Shown here: positions 4,096 to 31,754 of the stretch, in pieces
How positions within the stretch are numbered: the first letter of the stretch is position 1
Layout of the letters: each line of letters opens with the position of its first letter
NCBI GenBank assembly: GCA_964370965.1
Contig: CAYJLW010000013.1
Coordinates: 5,696-69,695, forward strand
Length of the DNA: 64,000 nt
Source of the DNA: an uncultured Acidimicrobiia bacterium
GTDB lineage: Bacteria > Actinomycetota > Acidimicrobiia > UBA2766
Direction: 5' to 3'
Notes under the pieces: model-generated
What the model was told of the DNA's origin: nothing
Seen by the model: only the letters and a program-made list of their open reading frames with translations
The model's database searches: none
Position numbers and translations under genes: made by a program

Positions 4096-4393
4096 GTTCC
4101 CTCTTCCGCCTGCGAAAGATGTTGCACTACACTAGCAATCATCGCTAGGAAAACAAGCTTTAGGACCCCGCGAGACTGCGCCCGGCCTGCTTCGGTCAGG
4201 GGGCCGCTCGGGCCCCCTGACGAGACCACCGAGATCACGCTCGGAAGCGAGCAAGTCGTCGACATCGGCGGGATGCCCTCAACAGGGGATACTCGGGTAG
4301 ACACGGGTGTGGGCGGCCTGTCGCGGCTTCGGGTGCGACACGCTCCAGCGCCCGAAAGAACCCGCTTGCCAGCTTCCAGGCCAGGAGGTCGCG

Positions 4394-5524
4394 TCAGCCC
4401 CGCGAGTCCTGATCATCCGAGGGTCCACCTACGGCCTGATGCAGCCACGCCGTCAGGAAGTCCTCGCCGTGCTCCGACGCCTCTTCCTCAAAGGCTCCTG
4501 CTATCTCGGCCACCACGCTCTGAAACTCGTAGCCGACCACCTCGGCCGCGGCTCTGAAAGCGCGCTGATACACCCGCAGGAGCAACTCGGGCCCGACCTT
4601 GCTCTGCGTTAGTTCGTTGAGAGCCGTGCGGCCAACCACGACAGCGGTTGCCGGGGAGGCTCGCAGGACTGCGCCCTTCGAGCGATGTCCCTTTAGGGTG
4701 TTGCCGACAATGGCGGCGTAGAAGGTCCGGGCGCCCCACACCTCCTCCAACGCACGTAGCTGGTCACCGAGCCGCTTACCGTCCCCGCCCTTGGCCGACC
4801 CGGTCTTGCTCTTGATCTGAAACAGACGAATGCGCTCAGGCTCCTCAAGACTCGGCACTTGGCCGACATCTGCGCCAGGAAACGGATTCATGACAGGATC
4901 CAAAGTCTCCTTGACACCACCCTTCCCCCGAGGCTCAGGAATCCGAAAGTTGCCTCGCATAGCGCCCAAGATCTCTTGGTGAAGATTTCCGACAAGGTCC
5001 TCAATCTTCATCAAAATCTTATGGGATGTCGTGCTCTCGATTGTACGACCAAGATCACGTCCGCTGAGCAATTCAAAATTAGCCGAAAGGATGAACGGAT
5101 CCAGCACATCGCCCGGGTTACTTCCGCGGCGCAAACTGTCTGCTGATGCAGGGAACTGGCGGACTACGTCAATAACGATGCGGGCAAGGAATGCAGTTGC
5201 GCGCTCCGGGTCTGAGAAGGCGCGGCAGAGCTGTATCTGATCGGCCAATGCCTCGGCCATGCCGGTACCGGCGGACAATTCCGAGGCCAGCGCACCCAAG
5301 AGGTCGCTGTGGGCCATGTTTCCGAGTTCCAGAGCGCTCCAGTCGCTCGAAAATGGAAACCGGATCGCCCTGGTCGAAATCTTCAGGTCCGTACACGCCT
5401 TATTGAATAAGTCCACGGCCGCAGCATTTCGCAGCCACTTCAGGTCATCGCTGGCTCGGCGAATCTCATCGACAAGATCCGGGGCGAGCCCCTCAAAAGC
5501 GCCGGTGAGCCAATCGGCATTCAA
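4394..5524 (-). CDS. putative type II restriction endonuclease (partner of the C5 methyltransferase)
   Basis: 376 aa. The start (TTG at 5524) overlaps the methyltransferase stop (TGA 5523-5521). Lies immediately downstream of the M gene inside the low-GC island. No recognised family motifs, so the call is inference from context. Confidence 0.45.
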   Translation of the reverse strand: MNADWLTGAFEGLAPDLVDEIRRASDDLKWLRNAAAVDLFNKACTDLKISTRAIRFPFSSDWSALELGNMAHSDLLGALASELSAGTGMAEALADQIQLCRAFSDPERATAFLARIVIDVVRQFPASADSLRRGSNPGDVLDPFILSANFELLSGRDLGRTIESTTSHKILMKIEDLVGNLHQEILGAMRGNFRIPEPRGKGGVKETLDPVMNPFPGADVGQVPSLEEPERIRLFQIKSKTGSAKGGDGKRLGDQLRALEEVWGARTFYAAIVGNTLKGHRSKGAVLRASPATAVVVGRTALNELTQSKVGPELLLRVYQRAFRAAAEVVGYEFQSVVAEIAGAFEEEASEHGEDFLTAWLHQAVGGPSDDQDSRG

Positions 5525-6816
5525 CGTACTCGACGGTTGCGCGCGGCTGCACGAACCTTCCGTACGGCGATGGCTAGCAGCCCATCCTCGTCCTGAGGAT
5601 GGGGCGCAGCAGGTCTAGCGCCTGACATGGCCTCGGCGACGCTCCGCCCAGCTGCCATTCCGAGCGCCATGGGGACTGCGTTGCCGATCTGGACATAGTG
5701 CTGGTTCATCGATCCCGAGAATCTCCAATCATCAGGAAAACCCTGCAGCCTCGCGCACTCTCGAACCGAGAGTGGTCGGGTGTCCTGCGGATGACAGAGC
5801 GCAGAGCCCTTCCGATTCGCTTTACCCGTGATTGTCGGCGCGGGCTCATCCCAACTCAGGCGACGAAAGAACCCCGTCTTCCCACCGCCAGCCGCGTAGC
5901 TTCGTTCTCCCATGGCACGCCGAGCAATATCCGTCGGCAGAGATCGCCAGTTGCCGCCAGGCGGTACTAGATCGAAGACCCGGGCCACGTTGGGGGTATA
6001 TTGCGACCCTGGTCCGGGGTCACTGATGAGGTCTGCAATCGCGTCCTTGAGGGTGACAAAGCCCAAGCTTGATCTTGGTCCATGCGTGACTTGGGGCAAA
6101 GCTGGCGCTCCCTCGTCCCGTGATCCAAGCATTAGGAATCGAAGTCGCTTTTGCGGTGCGCCCAATTCTGAGGAATCGAAGACTCCGAAGGTAACGGCAT
6201 AACCTAACCCGGCGACCGCTGTGTCCAGCAAGAAACGCATCGCTGATCCAGACAGCTCGTCTTCTGCCAAAGGATGTGCGCCTCCGACTTCAGCCGGAAA
6301 GAGGGACGCCTGATCACGGCCGTATCTGGAGAGGTTCCAATGCTTCCCGGGCCGCTCATCGATAGGACGATGTCGAAGCGCTGCAGTCACCAAGTTGGCG
6401 ACATTCTCTAGAATGAAGAATCGCGGGCGGACTTCAGATATGAGGCGAAGATATTCAAGGATTAGGTTTCCCCGAGGATCAGAGAGAGCGGCCCGCTTCC
6501 CACCCGGACAAAAGCTCTGGCATGGGGGGCCGCCCACCATCAGGTCAACCTCGCCCGTTCCGCGGCTAGCGGCCGCCAGGTCTCGGCCGGAGAGCGATGC
6601 AACGTCCGCCTGGAGAACACTCAGGTTGGGCCGGTTGCCACGGATGGTCTCAACGAAGACTGGCTCGATCTCGACAGCCAACTCCGGAGCGAGGCCTATC
6701 GCCTCCAAGCCCAGATCGAGGCCCATCGCACCTGTGAACAAGGACCAGACTCTCGACACCCTTGACCTCTGGCGTCCGTCGGGGCAAGTCGTGAGCGTAC
6801 AGCGCCGGGATCCCAC
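5521..6816 (-). CDS. DNA (cytosine-5)-methyltransferase
   Basis: Motif I LFTGAMGLDLG, motif IV GGPPCQSFCPGG, motif VI ENV, motif X QIGNAVP, and a variable target-recognition domain between them. GTG start at 6816. Confidence 0.9.
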   Translation of the reverse strand: MGSRRCTLTTCPDGRQRSRVSRVWSLFTGAMGLDLGLEAIGLAPELAVEIEPVFVETIRGNRPNLSVLQADVASLSGRDLAAASRGTGEVDLMVGGPPCQSFCPGGKRAALSDPRGNLILEYLRLISEVRPRFFILENVANLVTAALRHRPIDERPGKHWNLSRYGRDQASLFPAEVGGAHPLAEDELSGSAMRFLLDTAVAGLGYAVTFGVFDSSELGAPQKRLRFLMLGSRDEGAPALPQVTHGPRSSLGFVTLKDAIADLISDPGPGSQYTPNVARVFDLVPPGGNWRSLPTDIARRAMGERSYAAGGGKTGFFRRLSWDEPAPTITGKANRKGSALCHPQDTRPLSVRECARLQGFPDDWRFSGSMNQHYVQIGNAVPMALGMAAGRSVAEAMSGARPAAPHPQDEDGLLAIAVRKVRAAARNRRVR

Positions 6817-7014
6817 AACGGTGGATGGGGCGCCTCCCCCCTGGCTGTCATAAGGCTGACGTGAGACACGTGTTGTAGCCCGCTATCTGTCGGGGCGAGA
6901 CCAGGACAGCGTGGAGCCCCATGTCGCCCCTTCGCCACCGCAGGAAACGGGACCCAATCCCCTCGGCCGACAGACGGCCAGCCGCGTCATGTAGAGGGCG
7001 CTCTCGATCGGGCG

Positions 7015-7440
7015 TTACCCCCTGACCACGTCCACGGACACGCAGCGGTCGAAGCGGACGGGCTGCCACTCCATGGGGGCGTACTGGAGGTGGTCGTAGC
7101 CGTCGACGAGGTGGAGCCACTTCACCATCCCGACCTCGACCTCGTTGGGGCCCTTGCCCCCCGGGGATCATGTAGTCCTCGTAGCCGTTGGAGACCGTCA
7201 GGGCGCCCGGACGCCACGTCGGGCTCGTGTGCAGGTTCACCCGAAAGTCGCCCACGTCGTTCCAGACCCCCGCGGTGTCGTCGGCGATGTCGAGAGCGGC
7301 GGCGTCGTCGGGGTGGATGAGCTGCGGACGGTGTCGGGGTGCCCACCGGTCGCTCCGGCCACCCGCTCCGGGCGGCACTCGCTGTCGAGGAGCCGCCGCA
7401 CCCGGGCCAGGAGCGGCTCCACGGTGACCGTCGTGCCGTC
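7015..7440 (-). pseudogene. C-terminal remnant of a molybdopterin bis-MGD oxidoreductase, paralogous to the 3' end of the 27563-30508 gene
   Basis: The minus-strand translation LIHPDDAAALDIADDTAGVWNDVGDFRVNLHTSPTWRPGALTVSNGYEDYMIPGG / KGPNEVEVGMVKWLHLVDGYDHLQYAPMEWQPVRFDRCVSVDVVRG* aligns with VVVHPEDAAREGIADHQPVRVSNEAGSFVVRAKLSPTQRPGGVTVYSGWDGHQFPGW...PSLVKHLGLAAGYGHLRYGPMEWQPVPCDRPVAVDIEAVVEG of the full-length gene. A +1 frameshift at the C6 run 7157-7162 separates the two segments. There is no N-terminal 800 aa, because the region upstream is the crtI-like promoter. Confidence 0.55.
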
Positions 7441-7523
7441 GGCGGGGGCGTCGTCGGTGACACGGGCGTCACCGGTTGTGGCGGGGCCTAATCGCTGGAT
7501 ATATTGGCTATCAATACCCATGA

Positions 7524-9155
7524 GTGGGAACTCACTCTCCGGGGGGATGCACGTTGAGCACACTCACCTACGACGCCATCGTCATCGGGGCGGGACACAA
7601 CGGCCTGTGCCTCGCTGCCTACCTGCAACGGGCCGGCCTCAAGACCGTCGTCGTGGAACGGCGCCACGAGGAAGGAGGCGGCGCGAACACCGAAGAACCC
7701 GTGCTGACGGGCTTCCGTCACAACATGCACGCGCAGTACATGGAGTTCTTCGACGTCATGCCGATGGTCCGGGACTTCGGCCTGGAGGAGATCGGCCTGC
7801 GCACCGTCATGCCCGAGGCGCAGGCGGGCATCACGTTCGCCGACGGCCGACCCCCCGTCGTCCTCTACCGTCCCGACCTCAACGACCGCACGTACGAGTC
7901 CATCGCCCAGTATTCCAAGGCCGACGCCGAGCTCTACGTCGAGCTCAAAGCCCGGGCGATGAAGCTCGAGGCGCTCCTCGCCGCCGGCCTCTACAACCTG
8001 CCCTCGCCCCTGTCCGAGGACCAGGCGCCCATCGTGGAGATGGTCTTCGGGGACCTCGGCCTCACGAAGTACCACGCCACCAAGACCTGCAAGGTCCTCA
8101 TCGACGAGCTCTTCGAGACCTCCGAGCTGCGGGCGCTGCTGTACCGCACCTGCGTGGAGTGGGGCTTCCCCATCGACGACTGGGGCACCGCACCGGGCTG
8201 GCTCACGTTCATCATGTGGACCATGTCCAACTGGAAGCTCACCGTCGGGGGCACCCACACGCTGGCCAAGGCCATGATGCAGGCCTGCTACCGCGAGGGG
8301 GTCGACCTCATCGAGAACACCATGGTCGAGCGGGTCGTCGTGGAGGACGGCCGTGCCGGGGGGGTGGTCGCCCGGGGCCGTGAGATCCGGGCGACCAAGG
8401 TTGTGGCCTCCAACGCCGACCTGAAGCAGACCCTGCTCGACTTCGTGGGCGAGGACCACCTCTCGGAGCTGTGGGTGAAGAGGGCGAAGGCCTACCGCTA
8501 CGGCCCCAGCCACGTCCTGGGCACGCCGATGTTCTGCCTCTACGAAGCCCCCGAGTACAAGTCGGCGCGATGGAACCCAGACATCGACAAGACCTTCTAC
8601 ACGATGGTCGGCTTCGACGGCGCCGACGACACCGCCCGCTACATCCGCGACGCCTACAGCGGGACGATGCCCAAGCCGGCGGCCGGCATGTGGGTGAACA
8701 CCCTCTGGGACCCCCAGCAGGCCCCGGCCGGGCGACAGTCCGCCACCGGCTGGTACTTCCTCCCCCCGGCGAGCGCCCTGTCGAGCGAGGAATGGGCCGA
8801 CGTGCGGGCGACGTTCAACGAACGGTTCCTGTCGGTGTGGCGCCAACACGCCCCCAACATGACCCCGGCGAACGTGATCGCGCACAAGCTCTACACACCG
8901 GACCAGATGGAGCACAAGAACCTCATGCGCGAGGGGGACTTCTCCAACGGCGAGTTCGCCCCCGACCAGTTGGGTGCCAACAGGCCCTTCCCCGAGGCGT
9001 CCAACTACCGCACCGAGGTCGACGGCCTGTACCTGTGCGGCCCTTCGGCCTACCCGGGCGGCGGGGTCCACGCCGCCTGCGGCTACAACGCCTTCAAGGC
9101 GATCGCCGAGGACCTCGGGCTGCCCAGCCCCATCGTGGCCGAGAGGGGGTACTGA
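7524..9155 (+). CDS. CrtI/phytoene-desaturase-family FAD-dependent oxidoreductase (paralog A1)
   Basis: N-terminal dinucleotide-binding YDAIVIGAGHNGL...ERRHEEGGG. C-terminal family motif CGPSAYPGGGVHAACGYNA. Start is GTG at 7524, or TTG at 7554 behind a GGGGGGA SD-like run. Confidence 0.85.
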   Translation: MGTHSPGGCTLSTLTYDAIVIGAGHNGLCLAAYLQRAGLKTVVVERRHEEGGGANTEEPVLTGFRHNMHAQYMEFFDVMPMVRDFGLEEIGLRTVMPEAQAGITFADGRPPVVLYRPDLNDRTYESIAQYSKADAELYVELKARAMKLEALLAAGLYNLPSPLSEDQAPIVEMVFGDLGLTKYHATKTCKVLIDELFETSELRALLYRTCVEWGFPIDDWGTAPGWLTFIMWTMSNWKLTVGGTHTLAKAMMQACYREGVDLIENTMVERVVVEDGRAGGVVARGREIRATKVVASNADLKQTLLDFVGEDHLSELWVKRAKAYRYGPSHVLGTPMFCLYEAPEYKSARWNPDIDKTFYTMVGFDGADDTARYIRDAYSGTMPKPAAGMWVNTLWDPQQAPAGRQSATGWYFLPPASALSSEEWADVRATFNERFLSVWRQHAPNMTPANVIAHKLYTPDQMEHKNLMREGDFSNGEFAPDQLGANRPFPEASNYRTEVDGLYLCGPSAYPGGGVHAACGYNAFKAIAEDLGLPSPIVAERGY

Positions 9156-9156
9156 G

Positions 9157-9624
9157 ATGCCGGAGATCTACAGCGAGGGCTGGTACGAAGCCGTCGTCGA
9201 CACCATCAACACCAAGGTCGGGACCCTCTCGGAGAAGGACGTCCCCAAAGGCGTCTGGCACGCCGTCGTGGAGATCGTCGCCGACGGCAGGTCCCCGTAC
9301 GTGGCGGAGGGCGACACCCGTCGCTTCCTGATCCGCATCGACGGCGGCCGCTGCGCCTGGTACCGGGAGATCGACACCCCGAACCCCGAGGGCGTGGAGC
9401 TCGACTACCGCTTCGTGGGCCCCGCCGCCGCCTTCGACGGCATCGCCGCCGGCATCGTCGACCCCGTCGACGCCGCCCTCGACGGCACCGTGCGGGTGCG
9501 GGGCGACATGCGCTTCCTGATGCGCCAGGCGGAGCTCGTGAAGACGCTCCTTGAGGCCTACACGTCCGGGGTGGACACGGAATGGCCCGCCGGCCGCCCG
9601 CCCTACAACGGTGCCGCCGGCTGA
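9157..9624 (+). CDS. SCP2 sterol/lipid-carrier-domain protein
   Basis: 155 aa. The ATG lies 1 nt after the A1 stop. C-terminal GDMRFLMRQAELVKTL is an SCP2-like helix motif. Confidence 0.7.
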   Translation: MPEIYSEGWYEAVVDTINTKVGTLSEKDVPKGVWHAVVEIVADGRSPYVAEGDTRRFLIRIDGGRCAWYREIDTPNPEGVELDYRFVGPAAAFDGIAAGIVDPVDAALDGTVRVRGDMRFLMRQAELVKTLLEAYTSGVDTEWPAGRPPYNGAAG

Positions 9625-9676
9625 GCCCGGCTGCCCCCTGCATTGGCAGTTCCCGTGCGAGTGAAAGGTCCTGGGG

Positions 9677-11272
9677 ATGCGTGACAGCTACGACGTGATC
9701 ATCGTGGGGGCGGGTCACAACGGCCTCACCCTCGGCTGCTACCTGGCGCGGGCCGGTCTCGACGTCCTGGTGCTGGAGCGCCGCCACGAGGAAGGCGGCG
9801 GCCTCTGCACAGAGGAGGTCACCCAGCCGGGGTTCCTGCACAACATCCACGCCAACTACCACACCTTCGTCGACCTGGCACCGCCCGTGAACGATCTCGA
9901 GGTGCGCGCGCACGGCGCCGAGTACGTGCGGCCCGAGGTGCAGATGGCGTCCCTCTACCCGGACGGCACGGCGCTCACCATCCACACCGACATGGACAAG
10001 ACGCAGGCGTCCATGGCCCGCTTCTCGGAACGGGACGCCGAGACCTTCGGCCGCCTCCACCGGGAGGCACACGGCTACATCGACCTCCTCCTGGGCACCC
10101 TCATGTACCAGCCGCCCATGTCGGTCAAGGAGCTCACCAAGGCGCTGGCGTCCTTCGGCGTCGAGGACCGCTCGGAGTTCCTGTCCGTGAAGCTCCGCCG
10201 CGAGTCGATCAACCAGTTCCTCGACCGCCACTTCGAGAGCGACAAGGTCAAAGCGCACCTCGCCTTCCACGGGGCCGTGTGCTCGTACACCAACGACGTC
10301 CCGGGCCTGGCGATCGGCTACCCGCTCCTGATCGGCAAGATCAGCAACTGGCACGTGTGCGTGGGCGGCTCGCACCGTCTCGCCCACGCCCTCTGGCGGG
10401 ACCTCGCCCAGCACGGCGGCACGATGGTGTCCTGTGCCGAGGTGTCCCGGATCCTCGTCGACGGCGGCCGTGCCGTCGGGGTGCGCCTCGCCGACGGCAC
10501 GGAGATCGCCGCCCGTCAGGCCGTCGCCTCCACGGTGTCGGTGGAGCAGACGTTCCTGGAGTTCCTCAACGCCTCGGCGACCTCGGAGGAGTTCACGCAG
10601 AAGGTCAAGACGGAGGTGCAGCACAAGGACTGGACGCTGTTCTCGGTGCACCTCGCCATGAACCGCTTCCCCGAGTACACGGCGGCGGCCTTCGACGAGG
10701 ACGTGAACCGGGCATGGGTCGTGAACCTGGGCTACGACAGCCTCGACGCCCTGAACGCCGACTGGGCCGCGATACGGGCGGGCGGCCTGCCCGAGCCGAG
10801 GCCCAACGCCGCGGTGAACAGCCTCTACGACCCCACCGACGCCCCCGCCGGATGCGCCACCGGACTCCTGCGCCAGTTCGCCCCCTTCGCCCTCGCCGAC
10901 GGCGGCGAGGGCGCCTGGGAGAAGGCGGGGCGCTGGTACGGCCAGCGTTGCATCGAGGCCTGGCGGGAGTACGCCCCGAACCTCACCGACGACGCCTTCG
11001 TCGAGTGGGCCGTGGACACCCCCCTCGACATCACCCGCAAGCTCCCCAACATGCCCCGGGGGGACTGGATGATGGGCGAGATCAGCCTGGACAACATGCT
11101 GGACGAGCGGCCCCTCCCGGAGCTCGGCCAGTACAAGACACCCGTGGAGCGCCTCTACATGGCGGGTTCCACGCAGCATCCCCACGGCTTCATAACGTTC
11201 GGCCCGGGCTACAACGCCCTCCAGGTGATCGCCGACGACCTCGGCGTCGACAAGTGGTGGCGCAAGATCTGA
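9677..11272 (+). CDS. CrtI/phytoene-desaturase-family FAD-dependent oxidoreductase (paralog A2)
   Basis: YDVIIVGAGHNGL...ERRHEEGGG; C-terminal AGSTQHPHGFITFGPGYNA. Confidence 0.85.
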   Translation: MRDSYDVIIVGAGHNGLTLGCYLARAGLDVLVLERRHEEGGGLCTEEVTQPGFLHNIHANYHTFVDLAPPVNDLEVRAHGAEYVRPEVQMASLYPDGTALTIHTDMDKTQASMARFSERDAETFGRLHREAHGYIDLLLGTLMYQPPMSVKELTKALASFGVEDRSEFLSVKLRRESINQFLDRHFESDKVKAHLAFHGAVCSYTNDVPGLAIGYPLLIGKISNWHVCVGGSHRLAHALWRDLAQHGGTMVSCAEVSRILVDGGRAVGVRLADGTEIAARQAVASTVSVEQTFLEFLNASATSEEFTQKVKTEVQHKDWTLFSVHLAMNRFPEYTAAAFDEDVNRAWVVNLGYDSLDALNADWAAIRAGGLPEPRPNAAVNSLYDPTDAPAGCATGLLRQFAPFALADGGEGAWEKAGRWYGQRCIEAWREYAPNLTDDAFVEWAVDTPLDITRKLPNMPRGDWMMGEISLDNMLDERPLPELGQYKTPVERLYMAGSTQHPHGFITFGPGYNALQVIADDLGVDKWWRKI

Positions 11273-11300
11273 CGGCTCCCCAGAACGGGGACGGAGAGAG

Positions 11301-11828
11301 ATGACGTCTGCAGCGACAACGGCCCCCACGGTCCGCCTGGACGCCGGTGAGGAGGCGTCCGGGCTCGCCATGATCCTCGGCGACCTCATCGAGTCGAACC
11401 TGCGGGACTTCCCCGGCCGACGCCGGGTGGCATCCACGTCCCGGGGCGAGATCGTCCTGTCCGCGTCCGACCGGGACGTCTCGGTGACCCTCTCCTTCCG
11501 GGGAGACGAGATCGTCATCTCCGAGGGCGCCCTCGACACGGCCCCGGCCCTGCGCGGAGCCTGGCTCGAGATGGCCGCCGTCTGCAGCGGCCGCCTGAAC
11601 CCCCTGCGGGCGATGGCCCAGGGCAAGCTCAGCGTCGCCCTGCGCCGCAGCCCCGCCCTCGTCGCCGCCACCGGCTTCGTCCTCTCTGTGCCCGAGTCGT
11701 TCTACGAGGACGACGCGGAGACCGCCGCCCGGCGTCGTCGCCAGGCCCTTGTCGTCGGTGCGGGTGTGGCCGCCGCCGCGACCGGCGTGGGAGTCGCCGT
11801 CTACGCCCGACGCCGGAGCTCCCCATGA
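11301..11828 (+). CDS. SCP2-domain protein with C-terminal membrane anchor
   Basis: MILGDLIESNL...RGAWLEMAAVCSGRLNPLRAMAQGKLSV is an SCP2-like fold signature. C-terminal VVGAGVAAAATGVGVAVY is a hydrophobic helix. RBS GGAGAGAG. Confidence 0.6.
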   Translation: MTSAATTAPTVRLDAGEEASGLAMILGDLIESNLRDFPGRRRVASTSRGEIVLSASDRDVSVTLSFRGDEIVISEGALDTAPALRGAWLEMAAVCSGRLNPLRAMAQGKLSVALRRSPALVAATGFVLSVPESFYEDDAETAARRRRQALVVGAGVAAAATGVGVAVYARRRSSP

Positions 11829-12766
11829 GCGCACCCTCCCTTGTCGTGCTCTGCGGGGGCCTCGGCGGCGCCCGCCTCGCCCTGGCGCTCCAGAGCGCCG
11901 GGGCCGCCGACGAGACCCTGTTCGTGACGAACGTCGCCGACGACGTCGAGGTGGGCGGACTCCTCGTCTGCCCCGACACCGACGCCGTCATCTACGCCCT
12001 CGCCGGCCGCTTCGACGAGGAGCGGGGCTGGGGCGTGCGGGGCGACGCCTTCCCGGGGGCCCGCCCCGGGGAACCCCCCTGGTTCAACCTGGGCAAGGCC
12101 GACCGCGCCCACCACGAACGGCGCCGGGAGCTCCTCGCCTCGGGCCTCACCCTGGGGGCGGCCACGCAGGTGCTCGCCGGGGACCTCCGGGTGCGGGCCG
12201 CGGTGCGTCCCGCCACAGACCAGCCCGTGCGCACCCGGGTCCGCACGGACACGGGCTGGCTGGGCTTCCAGGAGTGGCTCGTACGGGAACGCGCGCAACC
12301 CCCCGCCCGCGACGTCGTCTACGCCGGCATCGAGGCGGCGAAGCCAGACCCGGACACCCTCGACGCCCTCGGCGACGCCGATCTCGTCGTCCTCGCCGCC
12401 TCCAGCCCGGTGGCGTCGCTGCGGCCCACCCTCGCCCTGCGGGGTGTGCGCCGGGCCCTCACCCGTCGCCGCCGGCCCACGGTGGCGATCAGCCCGGTCA
12501 CCGGCCGACCCCTCGTCACCGACCGCGACCGACGCCGCTCCCAGGCCCGCGCCGCTCTCCTCGCGGCCGTGGGTGTCGCCCACGACCCCGCCGCCGTCGC
12601 CGGCCTCTACCGGGGCCTCGCCGACCGCTTCCTCCTCGACCCCGCCGACGCCCACGCCGCCCGGGCGGTCGCCGACCTCGGCCTCCAGCCCGTCGTCGCC
12701 CCCACCGTGGCCGAGACCATCTGGGAGCGGGCGAGGCTCGCCGACGTCCTCCTTTCGATGGCTTAG
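11825..12766 (+). CDS. cofD: 2-phospho-L-lactate transferase (F420 biosynthesis, CofD/FbiA)
   Basis: VVLCGGLGGARLALAL, NVADDVEVGGLLVCPDTDAVIYALAG, WFNLGKADRAHHERR, GFQEWLV and DADLVVLAASSPVASL match CofD/FbiA hallmark blocks. The start overlaps the SCP2-TM stop by 4 bp. Confidence 0.8.
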   Translation: MSAPSLVVLCGGLGGARLALALQSAGAADETLFVTNVADDVEVGGLLVCPDTDAVIYALAGRFDEERGWGVRGDAFPGARPGEPPWFNLGKADRAHHERRRELLASGLTLGAATQVLAGDLRVRAAVRPATDQPVRTRVRTDTGWLGFQEWLVRERAQPPARDVVYAGIEAAKPDPDTLDALGDADLVVLAASSPVASLRPTLALRGVRRALTRRRRPTVAISPVTGRPLVTDRDRRRSQARAALLAAVGVAHDPAAVAGLYRGLADRFLLDPADAHAARAVADLGLQPVVAPTVAETIWERARLADVLLSMA

Positions 12767-12822: not shown

Positions 12823-13379
12823 CTACACAACCGTGGATCGACCGCCTGGCGGCTCCCCGATGCCGAAGCGCGACTCCGTGACCGACACGTACTCCCGGCC
12901 CAGGTCCAGGCGGGCCGAGCCGAGCTCGGGACGGTTGGGCGTGTCGGGGAACATCTGGGGCTCCAACGACACCGAGCCGTGACGACGGAACGGCGCGCCA
13001 AGCCCGTTGCCTGTGTACACCTGATCGGCGCTCACGTGCATCCAGCGGCCGCTGGCGGGTGCGTCCAGCACCGCGGCCAGGCGGACGGTCCCCGCTTCTC
13101 CGGCGATCTCGTAGCAGTGGTCGAGTCCCGGCCCCGACGCCTCGCGTATCGCCCGATCGAAGCGCCCAGATGCGGGTTGCGTCCGTGGTCCTCGTACGCC
13201 GCGAGATCCGGCAGGCTGAGGTGGACGTCGGCGAGCTCACCCGACCTGTCCGGTGCTTCCAGCGAACGGATGGCCGCCCCCAGGGCGAGCAACCGCAACC
13301 GCAGCACGGGGCTCTCCAGACACACCTGCTCGACAGCGTGGCCGTCCTCGGTCACCCCCATCTGCTCCGCGAGCGCCAT
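12823..13379 (-). pseudogene. aldose 1-epimerase (mutarotase) N-terminal fragment, frameshifted
   Basis: The first frame gives ...LPDLAAYEDHGRNPHLGASIGRYARR (the mutarotase LGASIGRYANRI block). It then runs out of frame and resumes in another frame (RHGSVSLEPQMFPDTPN). Only about 180 codons remain before the cofD end. Confidence 0.45.
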
Positions 13380-13382
13380 GGG

Positions 13383-14281: not shown

Positions 14282-15760
14282 TCAGCCGGCGGATGCGCCG
14301 GCGGGCTGACCCGCTCCTCGAGTCCGGTCGTCGGGCAGGTGCCAACCGAGCGGCGCGCCCAGGTCGTCCACCGACGCCGGACCCCAAGTGCCGGACTCGT
14401 AGGTCTCCACCGGCCGCGGCGCGGCCAACAGCGGAGCCGCGACCTCCCACAGGCGCTCGATGCCCTCGGCGGTGTTGAACAGCGTGCGGTCCCCCAGCAT
14501 GGTGTCGTGCAGCAGACGCTCGTAGGCCTTGAGCTCGGCCCCCGGGTCGAAGCTCTGCCGGTACACGAAGTCCAGGTGCGCCCCGCCCAGCCTCATCGTC
14601 GCTCCGGGTTCCTTCGACCGGAAGTTCACGCGGATGCCGCCGGGCTCGGCGATCTCGAACACGAGCTCGTCCGGCGCCCGGGCGCCCGCGGCGGGGAACA
14701 TGTGCATTGGGGGCTCGCGCAGCGTCAGGGTGATGGCGCGCCGGCTCTCGGGCATGCGCTTGCCGGTGCGCAGGAGGACCGGGACGCCGGCCCAGCGGTC
14801 GTTGTCGATGTGGGCCTCCACCGCGACGAGGGTCTCGGTGTCCGAGTCGTCGGCCACGTCGGGCAGGTCCCGGTACCCGGCGTACTGCCCCCGGACCACG
14901 CGGGCTGGGTCCAAGGGCTGGATGTCGTCGAAGACCGCCTGTCGCCCTGCCCCGAGCGCCTCGGCCGTAAAGGACGCCGGCGACTCCATGGCGAGGAAAC
15001 CGAGCACTTGGAACAGGTGGGTGACCACCATGTCGCGGAAGGCGCCCGTCTCCTCGTAGAACTTGGCGCGATCCTCCACGCCCAGCGTCTCTGGGACGTC
15101 GATCTCCACCCGGGCGACGTGCTCCTTGCACCACACCGGCTCGAACAGCCGGTTGGCGAAGCGCACGGCCAGGATGTTCTGCACGTCCTCCTTGCCCAGG
15201 AAGTGGTCGATCCGGAAGATCTGCTCCTCGGCGAACACACTGCGGAGCACCGCGTTGAGCGCCTTGGCGGAATCGACGTCGGTGCCGAACGGCTTCTCCA
15301 GCACGACCCTCGCCCGCTCGCCGTTGAGCCCCGCCGTCCCCAAGCCGCCGACGATGCCGGGAACGGCCACAGGCGGGATCGACAGATACAGCAACGAGCG
15401 CGCGGAGGGGCCGAGGGCCGTTTCGCCGGCGCCCACGGCGGCCGCCAGCGCCGACATGTCGGTGGCGTCGCTCGGCACGTACGACAGGCGTGACAGGTAC
15501 GTGTCCCTTTCGGGGCCGTGGGTGGGCACGCGACCGAACTCGTCGACCATGTCCGCGGCGTGGCTCCGGAACTCGTCGTCGGTGCCGGACTGGGGCGACG
15601 TGCCGATCAGGCGGAAGTCCGCGGGCATCAGCCCGGCGGAATGCAGGTGGAAGAACCCCGGCAGCAACTTGCGGGCGGCCAGGTCCCCGGTGGCGCCGAA
15701 GAGCACGATCACGTGAGGATCGGCCACGGCGGAGTTCGTCGGGGCGTCGGTGGGATCCAC
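14282..15760 (-). CDS. zwf: glucose-6-phosphate 1-dehydrogenase
   Basis: N-terminal LFGATGDLA NADP motif and the G6PD active-site signature DHFLGKE. Confidence 0.9.
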   Translation of the reverse strand: MDPTDAPTNSAVADPHVIVLFGATGDLAARKLLPGFFHLHSAGLMPADFRLIGTSPQSGTDDEFRSHAADMVDEFGRVPTHGPERDTYLSRLSYVPSDATDMSALAAAVGAGETALGPSARSLLYLSIPPVAVPGIVGGLGTAGLNGERARVVLEKPFGTDVDSAKALNAVLRSVFAEEQIFRIDHFLGKEDVQNILAVRFANRLFEPVWCKEHVARVEIDVPETLGVEDRAKFYEETGAFRDMVVTHLFQVLGFLAMESPASFTAEALGAGRQAVFDDIQPLDPARVVRGQYAGYRDLPDVADDSDTETLVAVEAHIDNDRWAGVPVLLRTGKRMPESRRAITLTLREPPMHMFPAAGARAPDELVFEIAEPGGIRVNFRSKEPGATMRLGGAHLDFVYRQSFDPGAELKAYERLLHDTMLGDRTLFNTAEGIERLWEVAAPLLAAPRPVETYESGTWGPASVDDLGAPLGWHLPDDRTRGAGQPAGASAG

Positions 15761-15894
15761 GTTGTCAGCCTCCTGGGCGGCGGTCGGTCGGTCGGGACGG
15801 ACGGCTCGGATCCGGCGCCACTGGCTTGGACGGCGGGCGCGACGGCGGCGGCGCTGCGGCCCCTTCGGCGGGAGCGCTCTTGTCGTCCTGGCGC

Positions 15895-16584
15895 TCAGGC
15901 GTCACGGCGTGCCTCCGCGGCAGGTCCTGCCGCGGCGGCGTCGGCCAGGACCAGCGATGCCGCCGCCTCCACCCGACCGGCGGGGATGGAGCGGTCACCG
16001 GCCAGGAGCGAGGCCAGCGGCGTGCGCTTCTCCTCGCCGGTGACGAGCCAGAGGAGTTGGCCGGCGCGGGCGAGGGCCGGAAAGGTGAGAGTCATCCGGT
16101 GCCGGCCCTGGTACGTGGCGCCGGTGGGGGCGACGAGCCGGTCGGCCACCTCCAGGACGGGGTCGCCGGGGACCAGGGACGCGGTGTGCCCGTCGGGGCC
16201 GAGGCCGAGGTGGACGAGGTCGAAGCGGTCGGGAAGCTCCGTACCGTAGCGGGATGAGGCCGCTGCCAGGTCTTCCTCCTCGACGGGCATCGGATGGACG
16301 TGGGCCGGCGCGTCGCCGAGCGCGGAGCGGAGGCGCGCCAGGTTGCGGTCCGGGTCGTCCGCCGGGGCCACGCGCTCGTCGACCTGGTAGACGTCGACCC
16401 GGTCCCACGCCACGTCGAGAGCGGCCAGGCGGGCGAACATGACCCACGGCGTCCGGCCGCCGCTCACGGCGAACGTGAACCGGCCGCGCTCGGCCACGCC
16501 GACCCGGACCCATTCGGCGACCAGGGCAGCAGCCGCGGTGGCGACGGCCTCGGCGTCGGACCGGACGACGAGCTCGTGGTCCAC
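15895..16584 (-). CDS. pgl: 6-phosphogluconolactonase
   Basis: LGLGPDGHTASL signature. GTG start at 16584 forms a GTGA overlap with the gnd stop. Confidence 0.8.
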   Translation of the reverse strand: MDHELVVRSDAEAVATAAAALVAEWVRVGVAERGRFTFAVSGGRTPWVMFARLAALDVAWDRVDVYQVDERVAPADDPDRNLARLRSALGDAPAHVHPMPVEEEDLAAASSRYGTELPDRFDLVHLGLGPDGHTASLVPGDPVLEVADRLVAPTGATYQGRHRMTLTFPALARAGQLLWLVTGEEKRTPLASLLAGDRSIPAGRVEAAASLVLADAAAAGPAAEARRDA

Positions 16585-16586
16585 GC

Positions 16587-17618
16587 TCAGGCCTGCTTCT
16601 CGGCGTGGCCGCCGAACTCGCCGCGCATGGCGGAGAGGACCTTGGCGGTGAACAGGCCGAGATCGCGGGACTCGAACCTCTCGTTGAGGGCGGCGCTGAT
16701 GACGGGAGCGGGGACGCCCTCCTCGATGCCGGCGACGACCGTCCAACGACCCTCACCGGAGTCCGACACGCGACCGGCGTACTCGTCGAGCTCGGGGGAG
16801 CGGGCCAGCGCATCGGCGGTGAGGTCCACGAGCCACGAGCCGACGACTGAGCCACGCCGCCACACCTCGGCGACCTCGGCGACGTCGATCTCGTACCGGT
16901 AGTACTGCGGGTCCCGCAACGGCGTGGTCTCGGCGTCCACCTCCTGCCGGCGGAGGCCGGCGTCGGCGCCCTTGATGATGGAGAGGCCTTCGGCGATGGC
17001 GGCCATCATCCCGTACTCGATCCCGTTGTGGACCATCTTCACGAAATGCCCGGCGCCGTTCGGCCCGCAGTGCAGGTATCCCTTCTGGGCCGTGCCGTCG
17101 GTGCGCGTGCGGCCCGGCGTCGGGTCCACGTCGCCCTCACCGGGAGCGATGGTCGTCCAGATCGGGTCCAGGTGCGCCACAGGGGCGTCCTCCCCGCCGA
17201 TCATCAGGCAGTAGCCGCGATCGAGGCCCCAGACGCCCCCGCTGGTCCCGCAGTCTACGTAGTGGATCCCCAGTTCCTTGAGCTGGGCGGCCCGGGCGAT
17301 GTCGTCGCGGTAGTACGAGTTGCCTCCGTCGACGACCACGTCGCCGGCGTCGAGCAACTCCGCGAGCTGGTCGACGGTGCCCTGCACGAACCCGGCCGGG
17401 ACCATGATCCACACCGCCCGGGGGGACTCCAGCTTCGACACGAAGTCGGCCAACGACTCGGCGCCGGTGGCGCCCGCGTCGGCCAGCGCCGCGACCGTCG
17501 GGGCGCTCACGTCGTAGACCACGCAACGGTGGCCGTCGGCCGTCAACCGGCGGACGATGCTCGCGCCCATGCGGCCCAGGCCGATCATGCCCAACTGCAT
17601 CGGGTTCTTGGTCGTCAT
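16587..17618 (-). CDS. gnd: 6-phosphogluconate dehydrogenase (decarboxylating), short form
   Basis: LGMIGLGRMGASIV Rossmann motif; CGTSGGVWG; GHFVKMVHNGIEYGMM signature; about 343 aa. Confidence 0.85.
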   Translation of the reverse strand: MTTKNPMQLGMIGLGRMGASIVRRLTADGHRCVVYDVSAPTVAALADAGATGAESLADFVSKLESPRAVWIMVPAGFVQGTVDQLAELLDAGDVVVDGGNSYYRDDIARAAQLKELGIHYVDCGTSGGVWGLDRGYCLMIGGEDAPVAHLDPIWTTIAPGEGDVDPTPGRTRTDGTAQKGYLHCGPNGAGHFVKMVHNGIEYGMMAAIAEGLSIIKGADAGLRRQEVDAETTPLRDPQYYRYEIDVAEVAEVWRRGSVVGSWLVDLTADALARSPELDEYAGRVSDSGEGRWTVVAGIEEGVPAPVISAALNERFESRDLGLFTAKVLSAMRGEFGGHAEKQA

Positions 17619-17630
17619 CGTGGTGCCTCC

Positions 17631-19269
17631 TCAGGCGTGCTTCAGGTGCCGGTAGGTGCGGATGAGCGCATTGGTGGACGAGTCGAAGTTCAGGTCGGGA
17701 TCGTCGGCGGCGGTGAGCTTGGGGATGATGGCCAGCGCCAGCACCTTGCCCAGCTCCACGCCCCACTGGTCGAAGGAGTCGACGTCCCAGATCGTGCCCT
17801 GGGTGAACACGCTGTGCTCGTACAGGGCGACGAGCGTACCCAGCCGGTACGGCGTGAGGACGTCGGCGAGGATGACGTTGGTGGGCCGGTTCCCCTCCAT
17901 CACGCGGTGGGGGACGACGTCCTCCGCGGTGCCTTCGGCCCGGACCTCGTCCTCGGTCTTGCCGAAGGCCAGCGCCTGGGCCTGGGCGAACACGTTCGAC
18001 GACAGGATGTCGTGGTGGTCGCCCAGCGGGTTGAGAGTCTTGGCGAACCCGATCAGGTCGCACGGGATCGTCGTCGTGCCCTGGTGGATCAGTTGGTAGA
18101 AGCTGTGCTGGCCGTTGGTGCCCGGCTCACCCCAGTACACGGCGCCGGTGTCGGCGGTGACATGCCCACCGGCCAGCGTGACGTGTTTGCCGTTCGACTC
18201 CATCGTGAGCTGCTGCAGGTAGGCCGGAAAGCGCTTGAGGTACTGCTCGTAGGGCAGCACCGCCACGGTCTGGGTGCCCAAGAAGTTGCGGTACCAGACC
18301 GCGAGCAGACCCATCAGCACCGGGAGGTTGGATTCGAAAGGAGCCGTGCGGAAGTGCTCGTCCATGTCGTGGAACCCGCTGAGCATCTCCCGGAACCGGT
18401 CAGGGCCCACCGCCAGCATCGTCGAGAGCCCGATCGCCGAGTCCATCGAATACCGGCCGCCGACCCAGTCCCAGAACCCGAACATGTTCGCCGTGTCGAT
18501 CCCGAACTCCCGCACCCGCCCGGCGTCGGTCGACACCGCCACGAAGTGCTTCGCCACCGCAGCGTCGTCGCCCAGCGCGGCGAGACACCACTCGCGTGCG
18601 GAGCGGGCGTTGGTCATCGTCTCGAGCGTCCCGAACGTCTTCGAGGCGATGACGAACAGGGTCTCGGCCGGATCCAGGTCACGGGTGGCCTCGACGAAGT
18701 CGGTCGAGTCCACGTTCGACACGAACCGGAACGTCATGTCCCGCTCCGCGTAGAACCGCAGCGCCTCGTACGCCATGACCGGCCCCAGGTCCGACCCGCC
18801 GATGCCGACGTTGACGACGTTGCGGATGCGCTTGGCGGTGTGTCCCACCCACTCGCCGGAGCGCACCCGCTCGGAGAAGGCCGCCATGGCGTCGAGCACG
18901 TCGTTGACCTCGGCCACCACGTCCACGCCGTCCACCACCAGCGACTCGCCCCTGGGCATCCGCAACGCCACGTGCAGCACCGAACGGTCCTCGCTCACGT
19001 TGATCCGGTCCCCCCGGAACATCGCATCGATGTGCTCGCGCAGGCCCGACTCCCGGGCCAGCTGCACCAGCAGCCCCATCGTCCGGTCCGTCACCCTGTT
19101 CTTCGAGTAGTCCAGGTACAGGCCGCATGCCTCGGCCGTGAGACGATCACCGCGCCCCGGATCCTCCGCGAACAGGTCCCGCAGGTGCCGGGACTCGATG
19201 TCGTCGCGGTGCGCGGCCAGTGCCGCCCAGGCCGGATGCTCGCTCAGGTGCACGCGGTAGCTCATCGTC
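17631..19269 (-). CDS. pgi: glucose-6-phosphate isomerase
   Basis: SIS-domain PGI blocks ([36 protein letters not shown]). ATG at 19269 behind GGAGG. Confidence 0.9.
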
Positions 19270-20362
19270 GTCTTCCTCCGCTCTCTCGGCTCACGGCCTC
19301 GGCCTGAGACTCGACATGTTCCATCAGGTCCTTCCACGCCGCGACGAAGGAGGACGCTCCGTCGCTCTGGAGCTGAGCGGCGGTGGCGGCCAAGTCGACG
19401 CCCGCGTCCGTGAAGAGCGCCAGCACGTCGTCGCAGTCGCCCCCGTCGGCAGGAAGGACGTCCCCGACCTCTCCGTGGTCCGCGAAGTCCTCCAGGGTCG
19501 CGTCGGGCATGGTGTTCACCGTGAAGGGGGCCGCGAGCCCCGCCACGTAGAGCGTGTCCGGGGCGGCCGGGTCCTTGGTCGACGTGCTGGCCCACAGGAG
19601 CCGCTGCAGGCGGGCCCCCTCGCCGGCGAGGCGCTGCCATCGATCAGAGTCCTCAAGTCGGCGGTAGGCGCGGTAGGTGTCTCGGCCTACGGCCAGAGCC
19701 AGCCGGTCGCGCAGGTCCGCGGGCACCCGCTCGGCCACGGCCTTGTCCCAGCGCGACATGAACACCGACGCCACCGATCCCACCGCCGGGTCCAGGCCGG
19801 CCCGGACCCGCCGTTCCACGCCGCGCAGGTGGGCGTCGGCCGCGTTGCGGTAGTGGTTGGCGTCGAAGAGCAACGTCACGTTGACGGGGATGCCGGCGGC
19901 GACGCACTCCTCGATCGCCGGCAGGCCTTCGGGGGTGCCGGGGATCTTGATAAACAGGTTGTCCCGGCCGGCCCGCTCGTGGAGCGCGCTGGCCGCGGCC
20001 ACCGTGGACGCCGTGTCGTAGGCGAGCTCCGGGGACACCTCGAGGGAGACCCAACCGTCCACCCCGTCGGTGCGCTCGTGGATCCCGAGGAACAGGTCGG
20101 CAGCCCGTTGCAGATCCTCGATGGCCAGGTCGAAGAACAGTTCTTCGCCCGAGCGTCCGGCAGCCGCGCCCGCGCGGATGGCGTCGTCGTAGGCGCCGGA
20201 GGCGATGGCATGGTCGAAGATGGACGGGTTGGACGTCAGGCCCGTCACCGACTTCTCGTCGATGTAGCGCTGGATCGTGCCGTCGTCCAGCATCGTCCGG
20301 GTGATGTTGTCGAGCCAGAGGCTCTGACCCCGCTCGTGGAGGGCGTCCGTCGATTCGGTCAT
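19262..20362 (-). CDS. tal: transaldolase
   Basis: [10 protein letters not shown]...TSNPSIF...FIKIPGT transaldolase blocks. ATG at 20362 behind GGAG. Overlaps the pgi start by 8 nt. Confidence 0.9.
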
Positions 20363-20408
20363 GTCCGGCTCCTGTTCGTCTCGCTCTCGTGCCGCGGACT
20401 CGTCCGGC

Positions 20409-27523: not shown

Positions 27524-27562
27524 GCGCACCGAGCCACGCTCCCTTCCCCACGAGGCACTGAC

Positions 27563-31510: not shown

Positions 31511-31754
31511 CGCCAGGCGTGCTCTCGTCCATCACGTCTGCGAGGGCGGCGTTGCTCGTGAGGTCGACGCCGGCCAGGACGCCGCTCCCCCCGAAGACGG
31601 GCAGGGGCGCCACCCCTTGTTCCGGTGCCCGCCGGGGCCGCAGGGCCTCCCGGACGGCGTCTTCGATGACCTCGCCGACGGTGCGACCGGTCTGGGCGGC
31701 GCGGGCCTTCACCCGCCGGTAGAGCTGGTCCTCGATCCGGATCGTGGTCCGCAT
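31497..31754 (-). CDS. vapB: ribbon-helix-helix (CopG/VapB-type) antitoxin
   Basis: MRTTIRIEDQLYRRVKARAAQTGRTVGEVIEDAVREAL is the RHH fold signature. Overlaps the vapC start by 14 nt. Confidence 0.7.
   Translation of the reverse strand: MRTTIRIEDQLYRRVKARAAQTGRTVGEVIEDAVREALRPRRAPEQGVAPLPVFGGSGVLAGVDLTSNAALADVMDESTPGDALR

Follow-up and report, generated by a model that had tools for sequence, protein, structure and literature searches.

Why a gene of the CofD/FbiA family should end a cluster of lipid-type genes is the question raised by a locus of an uncultured Acidimicrobiia bacterium (UBA2766; contig CAYJLW010000013.1), in which five genes encode, in order, a flavoprotein (A1), a putative lipid carrier (P2), a second flavoprotein (A2), a second putative carrier (P4), and a CofD-like protein. 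FbiA/CofD is the EPPG- or LPPG:FO phosphotransferase of F420 biosynthesis, and a first-pass annotation of the locus had offered two explanations: either F420-linked chemistry takes place downstream of the flavoenzymes, or the gene encodes a CofD paralogue that acts on a different acceptor. The locus was analysed within a 64,000-nucleotide stretch of the contig (the window), which has a GC content (share of guanine and cytosine) of ~71%. Exact matches to the window proteins were found on metagenome contigs only, and the nearest named relatives are Acidimicrobiia metagenome-assembled genomes (MAGs). The cluster appears to join a new, SCP2-equipped variant of the CtmAB/delta-24-steroid-desaturase class of flavoenzymes to a CofD-like protein from a sub-family so far unrecognised, and the first-pass interpretation as a whole is partly supported.

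The five-gene cluster is real. Five open reading frames (ORFs) on the forward strand were confirmed at 7524-12766, and their coordinates and spacing agree with the first description:
7554..9155 (alternative start 7524), + strand: A1, flavoprotein, 533 aa (543 aa from 7524)
9157..9624, + strand: P2, predicted SCP2-fold protein, 155 aa
9677..11272, + strand: A2, flavoprotein, 531 aa
11301..11828, + strand: P4, predicted SCP2-fold protein with a predicted membrane anchor, 175 aa
11825..12766, + strand: CofD-like protein, 313 aa

The GC content at third codon positions (GC3) is 0.87-0.95 in all five ORFs, which is the bias of real genes in a genome of 71% GC, and a purine-rich ribosome-binding site precedes each of the five starts. 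For A1, the TTG codon at 7554 is more likely to be the start than the GTG at 7524, because it is preceded by a GGGGGGA ribosome-binding site, was chosen by the gene callers of the metagenome contigs, and places the N terminus in the same register as that of A2. The tight coupling originally described, including a 1-nt gap between A1 and P2 and 4 bp shared by P4 and the CofD-like gene, was verified at the junctions: the intervals are 1 nt (A1-P2), 52 nt (P2-A2), 28 nt (A2-P4), and -4 nt (P4/CofD-like), the last being an ATGA shared by the P4 stop and the CofD-like start. The whole unit was seen again, identical, on independent metagenome contigs. The overlap is also kept in loci L058 (ATGA) and L079 (GTGA), whose CofD-like proteins share 52 and 64% identity, respectively, with the window copy. 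It thus occurs in three lineages, the window included, exceeds chance, and constitutes a conserved coupling. The CofD-like gene is predicted to be translationally coupled to P4, the gene for the putative membrane-anchored SCP2 protein, and spacing and conservation argue for treating the five genes as an operon. The genes 3' of the cluster lie in convergent orientation. A scan of positions 6800-13400 for consensus promoters and terminators gave nothing beyond the expectation from shuffled sequence. A short AT-rich stretch, aatcgctggatatattggctatcaataccca, lies at 7488..7520, directly 5' of A1 in otherwise GC-rich surroundings, and may be a promoter or operator candidate. In two related loci, L099 and L103, a TetR gene is located just 5' of the equivalent four genes, in divergent orientation in L103.

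The fifth protein is a member of the CofD family. It matches the Pfam CofD model (PF01933) with 129 bits over residues 7-274 (gathering threshold, 30 bits) and, over its full length, Mycobacterium smegmatis FbiA (6UVX, from the PDB series 6UVX-6UW7; E=1e-38) and Methanosarcina mazei CofD (3C3D; E=7e-35), with which it shares both Pfam family and fold. The metal-binding aspartates are kept (D39/D51, equivalent to D45/D57 of FbiA) and the N-terminal GGxGxAR motif is conserved; these features, together with a shared FQEW segment, suggest that the CofD-like protein probably performs the same phosphoryl-transfer chemistry. YvcK, a CofD-related UDP-GlcNAc-binding protein of the same PF01933 superfamily, was ruled out as an identity, as the score on its model (TIGR01826; cut-off, 196 bits) is 26.4 bits and the window protein falls clearly on the CofD side. 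On the CofD equivalog model TIGR01819, however, the protein obtains 203.3 bits, under the cut-off of 257.45 bits, and this shortfall is shared by its relatives, as the scores on the same model show:
13 relatives of the window protein (Acidimicrobiia, Binatia-like MAGs, Nocardia, Nocardioides, and freshwater actinobacteria): 170-232 bits
Five standard CofD proteins (Dormibacterota, Chloroflexota, and Proteobacteria): 271-291 bits
M. smegmatis FbiA (267-aa fragment): 366 bits
M. mazei CofD: 449 bits

All 14 members of this group that were tested, including the window copy, fall under the cut-off. In a neighbour-joining tree, they were separated in 98 of 100 bootstraps from standard sequences of Actinomycetota (M. 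smegmatis), Chloroflexota/Dormibacterota, Proteobacteria, and Archaea. A profile built from the clade and searched against 1.84 billion representatives retrieved 767 clusters (50% identity) of the family at E <=1e-30, of which seven scored 400-467 bits and the next at most 330 bits; since 7 of 767 clusters form the top group, the clade accounts for ~1% of the CofD family. It is highly probable, on these comparisons, that the CofD-like protein belongs to a small, monophyletic, accessory clade distinct from standard CofD. In the literature on CofD paralogues and on phytoene-dehydrogenase/SCP2 operons, no earlier description was found, although coverage was incomplete and absence is not proven. 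One homologue, in an Ilumatobacteraceae MAG (L046, 10001..10923), aligns as three pieces with 72, 40, and 39% identity, at least two of which are in different reading frames; it represents either a frameshifted pseudogene or an assembly error.

The substrate sites of the clade were mapped using the FbiA segment boundaries given in PMC7253369, rather than a residue-level list of FO contacts. According to that study, the FbiA 145-189 subdomain forms the deazaflavin pocket and the loop at 239-254 closes over guanosine diphosphate (GDP). Clade and standard CofD proteins have 46 positions in common, including the metal-binding aspartates, which are invariant across the clade, and an FQEWLVR segment within the 145-189 subdomain. 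Features specific to the clade are the loss of ~5 residues from the FbiA 83-96 segment, on the rim of the deazaflavin pocket; the replacement of PSNP by A/S-SSP and of E80 by D; and an 8-residue arginine-rich insertion (RDRRRxxAR) in the GDP-closing loop, with D235, R238, and R242 invariant. Most of these changes cluster around the nucleotide/donor site. The alignment against the FbiA substrate sites, to which the first-pass annotation had pointed, therefore gives a divided picture, suggesting an acceptor pocket whose residues are mostly kept, apart from the one deletion at its edge, and a donor site that has been altered.

The surroundings of the gene, compared over ~100 loci in all, set the clade further apart. 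Loci of ~20 kb each (40 from genomes and 50 from metagenomes, cited by L numbers) were fetched with peptide patterns derived from the clade, their neighbour genes were scored by tblastn, and cofE and cofC in standard loci were confirmed by Pfam. In standard CofD loci, cofE is adjacent in every one with enough flank and cofC is present too in most, whereas neither CofC nor CofE/fbiB was found in any of ~40 clade loci within the locus sequence examined. The missing cofE/fbiB partner, remarked upon at the outset for the window alone, is hence a property of the whole clade. Unlike FbiA/CofD, the clade gene has none of cofC, cofE, and fbiB beside it in any locus and is invariably accompanied by lipid-catabolic genes: it is linked to CtmAB-like genes in ~12 loci and to nitroreductase, thiolase, ligase, SurE-like, or TetR genes in more than 20. 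Its position is 3' of one of two lipid modules. Module M1 is the flavoenzyme/SCP2 cassette. Module M2, which the clade gene follows or abuts, consists of genes for an acyl-coenzyme A (acyl-CoA) dehydrogenase, a nitroreductase, an Ltp-type thiolase, and an acyl-CoA ligase, often with a TetR gene. M2 and the clade gene were seen together in Binatia-like MAGs, Nocardia, Nocardioides, Nanopelagicales, and other Actinomycetota. In the versions from Nocardioides and Nanopelagicales, there are an extra SurE-like gene and two genes without assignment, and in the Nocardia locus the nitroreductase gene overlaps the clade gene. These module links span several phylum-level lineages at 47-65% protein identity. 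The part of M1 that precedes the clade gene varies between loci as follows:
A1-P2-A2-P4: window
A1-P2-A2: L011
A1-A2-P4: L058
A2-P4: L079
A1 alone: L023, L060, and L064
P4 alone: L020 and L026

In these loci, A1 orthologues with 75-79% identity adjoin the CofD-like gene in L011, L023, L058, L060, and L064, and A2 orthologues with 77-79% identity are present in L011, L058, and L079. The clade gene, M2, and CtmAB-like genes all occur together in L013, L016, L089, and L105. The two modules also keep company without the clade gene (L101 and L102); the cassette adjoins the nitroreductase/thiolase module in L101, L102, and L105 and lies between two copies of M2 in L102. The full A1-P2-A2-P4 cassette lacks a CofD-like gene in L099, L101, L102, and L103, as does a partial cassette in L100. 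From these arrangements we conclude that M1 and M2 are likely to be core modules of one metabolic system. Because the four-gene cassette often occurs without cofD, the CofD-like gene is an accessory rather than a core component, and very probably a recurrent one at the 3' end of either module. The five-gene unit first described is thus present and spaced as stated, but the unit that is conserved is A1-P2-A2-P4, to which the CofD-like gene is an addition.

Several neighbours of the cassette and of the clade gene bear on the role of the latter. Molybdenum-hydroxylase genes flank the cassette in L099, where it is next to a complete operon of the ethylbenzene dehydrogenase type (alpha, beta, gamma, and delta), and in L102 (beta and delta, at the end of the locus); a molybdenum hydroxylase alpha homologue (46% identity) and MobB lie 3' of the CofD-like gene in L020, L023, L026, L058, and L064. 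In L099, from a sister Acidimicrobiia genome, a fusion of an F420H2_quin_red domain (Ddn-like, PF04075) with a TMEM254-like membrane domain (8571..9332, + strand) directly follows P4 and fills the slot held by the CofD-like gene in the window. In Nocardioides soli, ~5 kb separates the clade gene from a standard FbiC gene. The distribution of the clade gene is sporadic, with one species of Nocardia and three of Nocardioides carrying it.

An operon with the order thiolase, nitroreductase, 120-aa protein, 262-aa protein, SurE-like protein, TetR, and CofD-like protein is conserved in Nanopelagicales and Nocardioides (L018, L019, L024, L056, L057, and L065; L014, L021, and L025) and is split over two strands in Nocardioides. 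The 120-aa and 262-aa proteins were considered as relatives of SCP2 or CofC without support, the 262-aa protein giving a weak EthD match only. The partner nitroreductase was likewise considered as a homologue of FbiB's C-terminal domain; searches of PDB and NCBIfam returned generic nitroreductases and weak BluB matches only. In L105, a wax-ester synthase/DGAT gene (8356..9837) lies directly 5' of the clade gene, a further link to lipids.

The flavoproteins A1 and A2 had been described as CrtI-like, a designation that we replace. Both possess an N-terminal GxGxxG dinucleotide-binding fold (Pfam DAO, NAD_binding_8, and Amino_oxidase), they share 34% identity, and only P2 lies between their genes. 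Their scores on the CrtI model TIGR02734 (81.8 bits for A1 and 72.8 bits for A2; cut-off, 238.1 bits) are far too low, and the CrtI structure 4DGK was matched at E ~1e-9 only, indicating a distant relation. The CrtO ketolase model NF045689 (162.9 and 241.1 bits, respectively; cut-off, 1000 bits) was rejected as well. A closer counterpart is described in PMC11061730: the delta-24 steroid desaturase of Sterolibacterium denitrificans, a heteromer of two paralogous subunits of ~60 kDa related to the limonene dehydrogenase CtmAB. In each desaturase subunit, flavin mononucleotide is attached through a covalent bond to the histidine of the consensus G-F-L/R-X-N/S-T/L-H-A, and close uncharacterised homologues are reported from Acidimicrobiales (PMC11061730). 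At matching places near their N termini, A1 contains GFRHNMHA and A2 GFLHNIHA, which fit this consensus at seven of eight positions and at six of the seven specified ones, the histidine (His59 in A1, His58 in A2) included; the T/L position is occupied by M in A1 and by I in A2. The motif is kept in A1 and A2 orthologues from 14 other loci.

Because of this motif, their architecture, and the pairing of their genes, A1 and A2 are placed in the CtmAB/delta-24-steroid-desaturase family as predicted alpha-type and beta-type subunits, respectively. Like CtmAB of Castellaniella defragrans and the Sterolibacterium enzyme, they are paired paralogues (~530-570 aa) with an N-terminal dinucleotide-binding fold and a covalent-flavin motif, and molybdenum hydroxylases of the ethylbenzene dehydrogenase/steroid C25 dehydrogenase family are found in the same neighbourhoods. 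They differ in the M or I that stands in place of T or L, in their actinobacterial (Acidimicrobiia) host, and in the two SCP2-fold genes interleaved with them; the term 'sterol carrier' is absent from PMC11061730.

The SCP2 identity proposed for P2 and P4 stood at the level of the predicted fold, with a sub-threshold Pfam match for P2 and none for P4. P2 scores 17.8 bits on the Pfam SCP2 model (PF02036), below the cut-off of 21.3 bits, but many of the 230 relatives that make up its family have a precomputed PF02036 match or are named 'SCP2 sterol-binding'. For its AlphaFold2 model (mean predicted local distance difference test score, pLDDT, 87.5), the top 30 Foldseek matches in PDB are all SCP2 folds, the best being 1WFR (E=9e-8), with template modelling (TM) scores of 0.70-0.77. 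P4 has no match in Pfam and NCBIfam scans, and its family comprises 31 proteins, all from Acidimicrobiia and all annotated as 'hypothetical'. Its AlphaFold2 model (pLDDT, 84) gave a top 20 composed entirely of SCP2 or UbiJ-SCP2 folds, with E values from 1.7e-4. The structures matched by the two proteins include 1WFR, 2CX7, and UbiJ-SCP2. At the sequence level, an SCP2 assignment of P4 failed in Pfam and in profile comparisons, its family profile retrieving just 4UEI from PDB (E=1.8), and the P2 and P4 profiles show no detectable kinship with one another (probability, 1.3%); it is the predicted structure alone that shows the fold. Both proteins are thus modelled as SCP2-fold lipid-binding proteins. 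In P4, the SCP2-fold domain (residues ~10-135) is followed by a putative C-terminal transmembrane anchor (residues ~149-167) between arginine clusters, with a Kyte-Doolittle maximum of 2.07 at residues 149-167, and this anchor is retained in the family alignment. The membrane anchoring attributed to the second SCP2 copy is consequently upheld as a prediction: P2 would be soluble, and P4 would be tethered to the membrane through its C-terminal helix. P4 differs from known SCP2 proteins in this anchor and in having no detectable sequence similarity to Pfam SCP2. P2 and P4 share the alpha/beta SCP2 fold with UbiJ-SCP2 of the ubiquinone biosynthesis metabolon (PDB 6H6O), and an analogous role, the holding of an isoprenoid lipid for flavin-dependent enzymes, is plausible. 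That the cassette as a whole is what it is reported to be here, a pair of such flavoenzymes with two SCP2-fold proteins, is considered likely.

How these proteins might act together can be proposed in outline. A1 and A2 would form a heteromer that carries covalent flavin on a histidine and oxidises an allylic C-H bond of a hydrophobic isoprenoid or steroid-like substrate independently of oxygen, as enzymes of this family do on isoprenoid chains. P2 and the membrane-tethered P4, by analogy with UbiJ-SCP2 in ubiquinone synthesis, would extract the greasy substrate and present it to the flavoenzyme, and the products would feed CoA-dependent side-chain degradation of the M2 type. In other genomes, the cassette would work alongside M2 and molybdenum hydroxylases of the ethylbenzene dehydrogenase type. 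In our reading, the CofD-like protein is an accessory phosphotransferase that serves this putative oxygen-independent isoprenoid or steroid-like catabolism. A hydroxyl group would attack the beta-phosphate of a nucleoside diphosphate-linked (NDP-X) donor, with release of the nucleoside monophosphate. The acceptor would be the ribityl hydroxyl of FO or of a flavin, the donor would be one not made by CofC, and the product would be a non-glutamylated (deaza)flavin phosphodiester dedicated to the reductases of the pathway. We infer the substrate class, the carrier role of the SCP2-fold proteins, and the donor and acceptor of the CofD-like enzyme from these comparisons.

The chances are about even that the enzyme uses an undescribed pair of donor and acceptor, with a common nucleotide donor and no CofC, to yield either a (deaza)flavin phosphodiester or a lipid alcohol activated at P4. 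Transfer from a new donor to a ribityl (deaza)flavin is the favoured version, though put forward tentatively; it is ranked above transfer to a lipid hydroxyl, and both are ranked above plain F420 synthesis. It is favoured because the acceptor-pocket residues are largely kept while the donor loop is remodelled, because CofD homologues are known to select their donors and, in Thermomicrobia, the last part of F420 synthesis falls to stand-alone nitroreductases, and because a gene of an F420H2-dependent reductase family occupies the equivalent slot in L099. The comparison with the Thermomicrobia pathway, in which CofD is followed by a nitroreductase that reduces dehydro-F420-0, is partial: a stand-alone nitroreductase gene recurs beside the clade gene, but the window itself has none near the cluster, and the nitroreductase also travels with the thiolase, ligase, and acyl-CoA dehydrogenase genes in the absence of a CofD-like gene. 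Other points weigh against the proposal. The associated nitroreductase has no specific similarity to the FbiB C-terminal domain, a candidate for the enzyme that makes the donor was not found, and both the cassette and the nitroreductase module occur in several genomes without a linked CofD-like gene. The deletion of ~5 residues in the FbiA 83-96 segment touches the deazaflavin-pocket region, so the acceptor may also differ. Candidatus Nanopelagicales carry the clade gene although they are reported not to make F420, and FO may therefore be unavailable there. The tie of A1 and A2 to CtmA and CtmB is by way of the published motif. The tight coupling to a lipid-binding protein with a putative membrane anchor is at least equally compatible with a lipid acceptor.

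The last point leads to a lipid-acceptor alternative, in which the CofD-like enzyme, held at the membrane with P4, would phospho-activate a hydroxyl of a pathway lipid intermediate, such as an allylic or tertiary alcohol produced by the CtmAB-like enzyme or by a molybdenum hydroxylase. With guanosine triphosphate (GTP) as the donor, an alkyl diphosphate and guanosine monophosphate (GMP) would result, and with another NDP-X a phosphodiester; the outcome would be either a leaving group well suited to elimination or an isoprenoid diphosphate, equal in its task to the ATP-dependent 25-hydroxysteroid kinase step in Sterolibacterium. The 4-bp coupling of the gene to P4 in three lineages and the likeness of P4 to UbiJ-SCP2, a presenter of isoprenoid lipids to enzymes, agree with this, as does the constant location of the clade gene among lipid or CoA-thioester genes. 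CofC is never near the clade gene, so the donor would probably be a common metabolite, and an extra phosphate could find a binding site in the arginine-rich insertion of the donor-enclosing loop. Moreover, the sterol pathway known to run without oxygen requires a phosphorylated alcohol intermediate whose lyase is still to be found, and a lipid acceptor would suit the Nanopelagicales with their reported lack of F420 synthesis. Set against this, nearly all conserved residues of both FbiA deazaflavin-pocket segments are kept, the FQEWLVR segment is near-identical to that of bona fide CofD proteins, a non-flavin acceptor is known for no member of the CofD family, and many genomes have the cassette without the CofD-like gene. 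Such activation of a lipid is regarded as rather unlikely, below transfer to a (deaza)flavin.

Ordinary F420 synthesis, in which the CofD-like protein would be the organism's FbiA and would make F420-0 or dehydro-F420-0 from FO and the CofC product, is judged improbable. Its divergence would then reflect a thin representation of Acidimicrobiia and their relatives in the TIGR01819 seed, and its position either the F420 demand of reductases encoded nearby or mere synteny. The intact catalytic aspartates and most family-conserved residues accord with this, as does an identity of ~40% to characterised FbiA and CofD, estimated visually on the alignments. The clade gene has housekeeping genes around it in L020 and L026 (those for Rho, ribosomal protein L31, DUF1385, and methionine biosynthesis), FbiC is near it in N. 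soli, an F420H2-dependent reductase family gene takes its slot in L099, and other Acidimicrobiia (Candidatus Actinomarinales) are reported to make F420. What speaks against a housekeeping FbiA is that the clade is monophyletic and stands apart from the standard CofD of Actinomycetota, Chloroflexota/Dormibacterota, Proteobacteria, and Archaea, with all tested members below the equivalog cut-off, conserved insertions and deletions at both substrate sites, and no cofE, fbiB, or cofC near any clade locus, in contrast to standard loci. The Nanopelagicales, reported to have no F420 pathway, carry the gene, and its occurrence in Nocardia and Nocardioides is sporadic. Species of these two genera are established F420 producers, and the clade gene should therefore be an extra copy there. 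Of the two explanations first offered, a paralogue with altered specificity is thus favoured by the divergent, monophyletic clade, whereas the plain-F420 branch is weakened, a clearly divergent copy being one half of what the first-pass annotation had itself named as refuting evidence (the other half being a canonical fbiA-fbiB pair elsewhere); the F420H2-quinone-reductase-family gene after P4 in L099 means that the F420 link may keep some support. Finally, the gene might have no functional link to its neighbours, being a passenger at the end of lipid operons or encoding a catalytically dead or regulatory protein. The neighbours do differ between lineages, the cassette and the nitroreductase module are often without the clade gene, and the L046 homologue seems frameshifted. 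This is nevertheless very improbable in view of the repeated link to M1 and M2 in several phylum-level lineages whose proteins share 47-65% identity, the preserved ATGA/GTGA overlap with P4, the catalytic residues that are invariant across the clade, and the strong coding signal in GC3.

Among the window ORFs scanned, no F420 biosynthesis genes and no F420-dependent enzyme families were found. Three genes located 15-23 kb 3' of the cluster belong to the same enzyme classes as those discussed above:
27563..30508, + strand: molybdenum hydroxylase alpha subunit, 981 aa (PDB 2IVF chain A, E=9e-197)
32147..33847, + strand: B1, 566 aa, CtmAB-like by Pfam and motif (GFRIDPHA)
33852..35567, + strand: B2, 571 aa, CtmAB-like by Pfam and motif (GYYTNVHA)

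The alpha subunit is related to ethylbenzene dehydrogenase and steroid C25 dehydrogenase, and B1 and B2 form a second adjacent CtmAB-like pair with variant histidine motifs. In L013, L016, and L089, orthologues of B1 and B2 (64-68% identity) have a CofD-like gene and the nitroreductase/thiolase module beside them, and in L099 and L105 pairs of similar size from this flavoenzyme family are close to the cassette or the clade gene. The three genes are probably pathway partners of the cluster. The region 26801..30508 (+ strand) comprises an acetoacetate-decarboxylase-like gene followed by the molybdenum hydroxylase alpha gene, and the beta, gamma, and delta genes are not nearby; a lone alpha gene beside MobB also occurs in L020, L023, and L058, and the full alpha-beta-gamma-delta set in L099. 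The interval from the molybdenum hydroxylase gene to B1/B2 contains genes for a PIN-domain toxin and a ribbon-helix-helix antitoxin (31079..31772, - strand).

Immediately 5' of A1, a 176-aa ORF (6848..7378, - strand) with a Molydop_binding fragment only looks like what is left of a molybdenum-enzyme gene after truncation. It is next to the contents of a low-GC island (4300..7400; 62-65% compared with 71%), which holds a gene for a C-5 cytosine DNA methylase (5521..6816, - strand) and a 376-aa ORF (4394..5524, - strand) and is probably a restriction-modification insertion. Directly 3' of the CofD-like gene, two overlapping ORFs of 82 and 115 aa (12823..13379, - strand) both match an aldose 1-epimerase family on metagenome contigs and are probably one frameshifted or split gene. 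These are followed by a complete pentose-phosphate block (14282..22400, - strand) with genes for glucose-6-phosphate dehydrogenase (G6PD), 6-phosphogluconolactonase, 6-phosphogluconate dehydrogenase, phosphoglucose isomerase, transaldolase, and transketolase; the G6PD is of the NADP type (G6PD_N/C), not of the F420-dependent Fgd type. Further 3' lie a gene for a 601-aa fusion of a cytochrome b561-like membrane domain with a sulfite-oxidase-type molybdopterin-binding domain (Oxidored_molyb; 23822..25627, - strand) and a wax-ester synthase/DGAT gene (42777..44180, + strand).

Genome surveys and drug-resistance work take CofD/FbiA as a marker with one function, F420 biosynthesis. The clade described here would represent a coherent CofD sub-family that has left the F420 gene set and become attached to lipid-catabolic operons in several phyla, and some genes annotated as 'cofD' may therefore not report F420 synthesis. 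Through the clade, a new derivative of deazaflavin or flavin, or a new form of lipid-alcohol activation, could come to light. The newly recognised covalent-flavin allylic oxidases of the CtmAB/delta-24 class, known so far from two Betaproteobacteria, would be extended to a cassette that is widespread in Acidimicrobiia and comes with dedicated SCP2 carriers, suggesting a way for enzymes of the CtmAB type to reach water-insoluble substrates. The neighbouring genes are candidates for the electron acceptor and for the missing steps of oxygen-independent sterol and terpene degradation.

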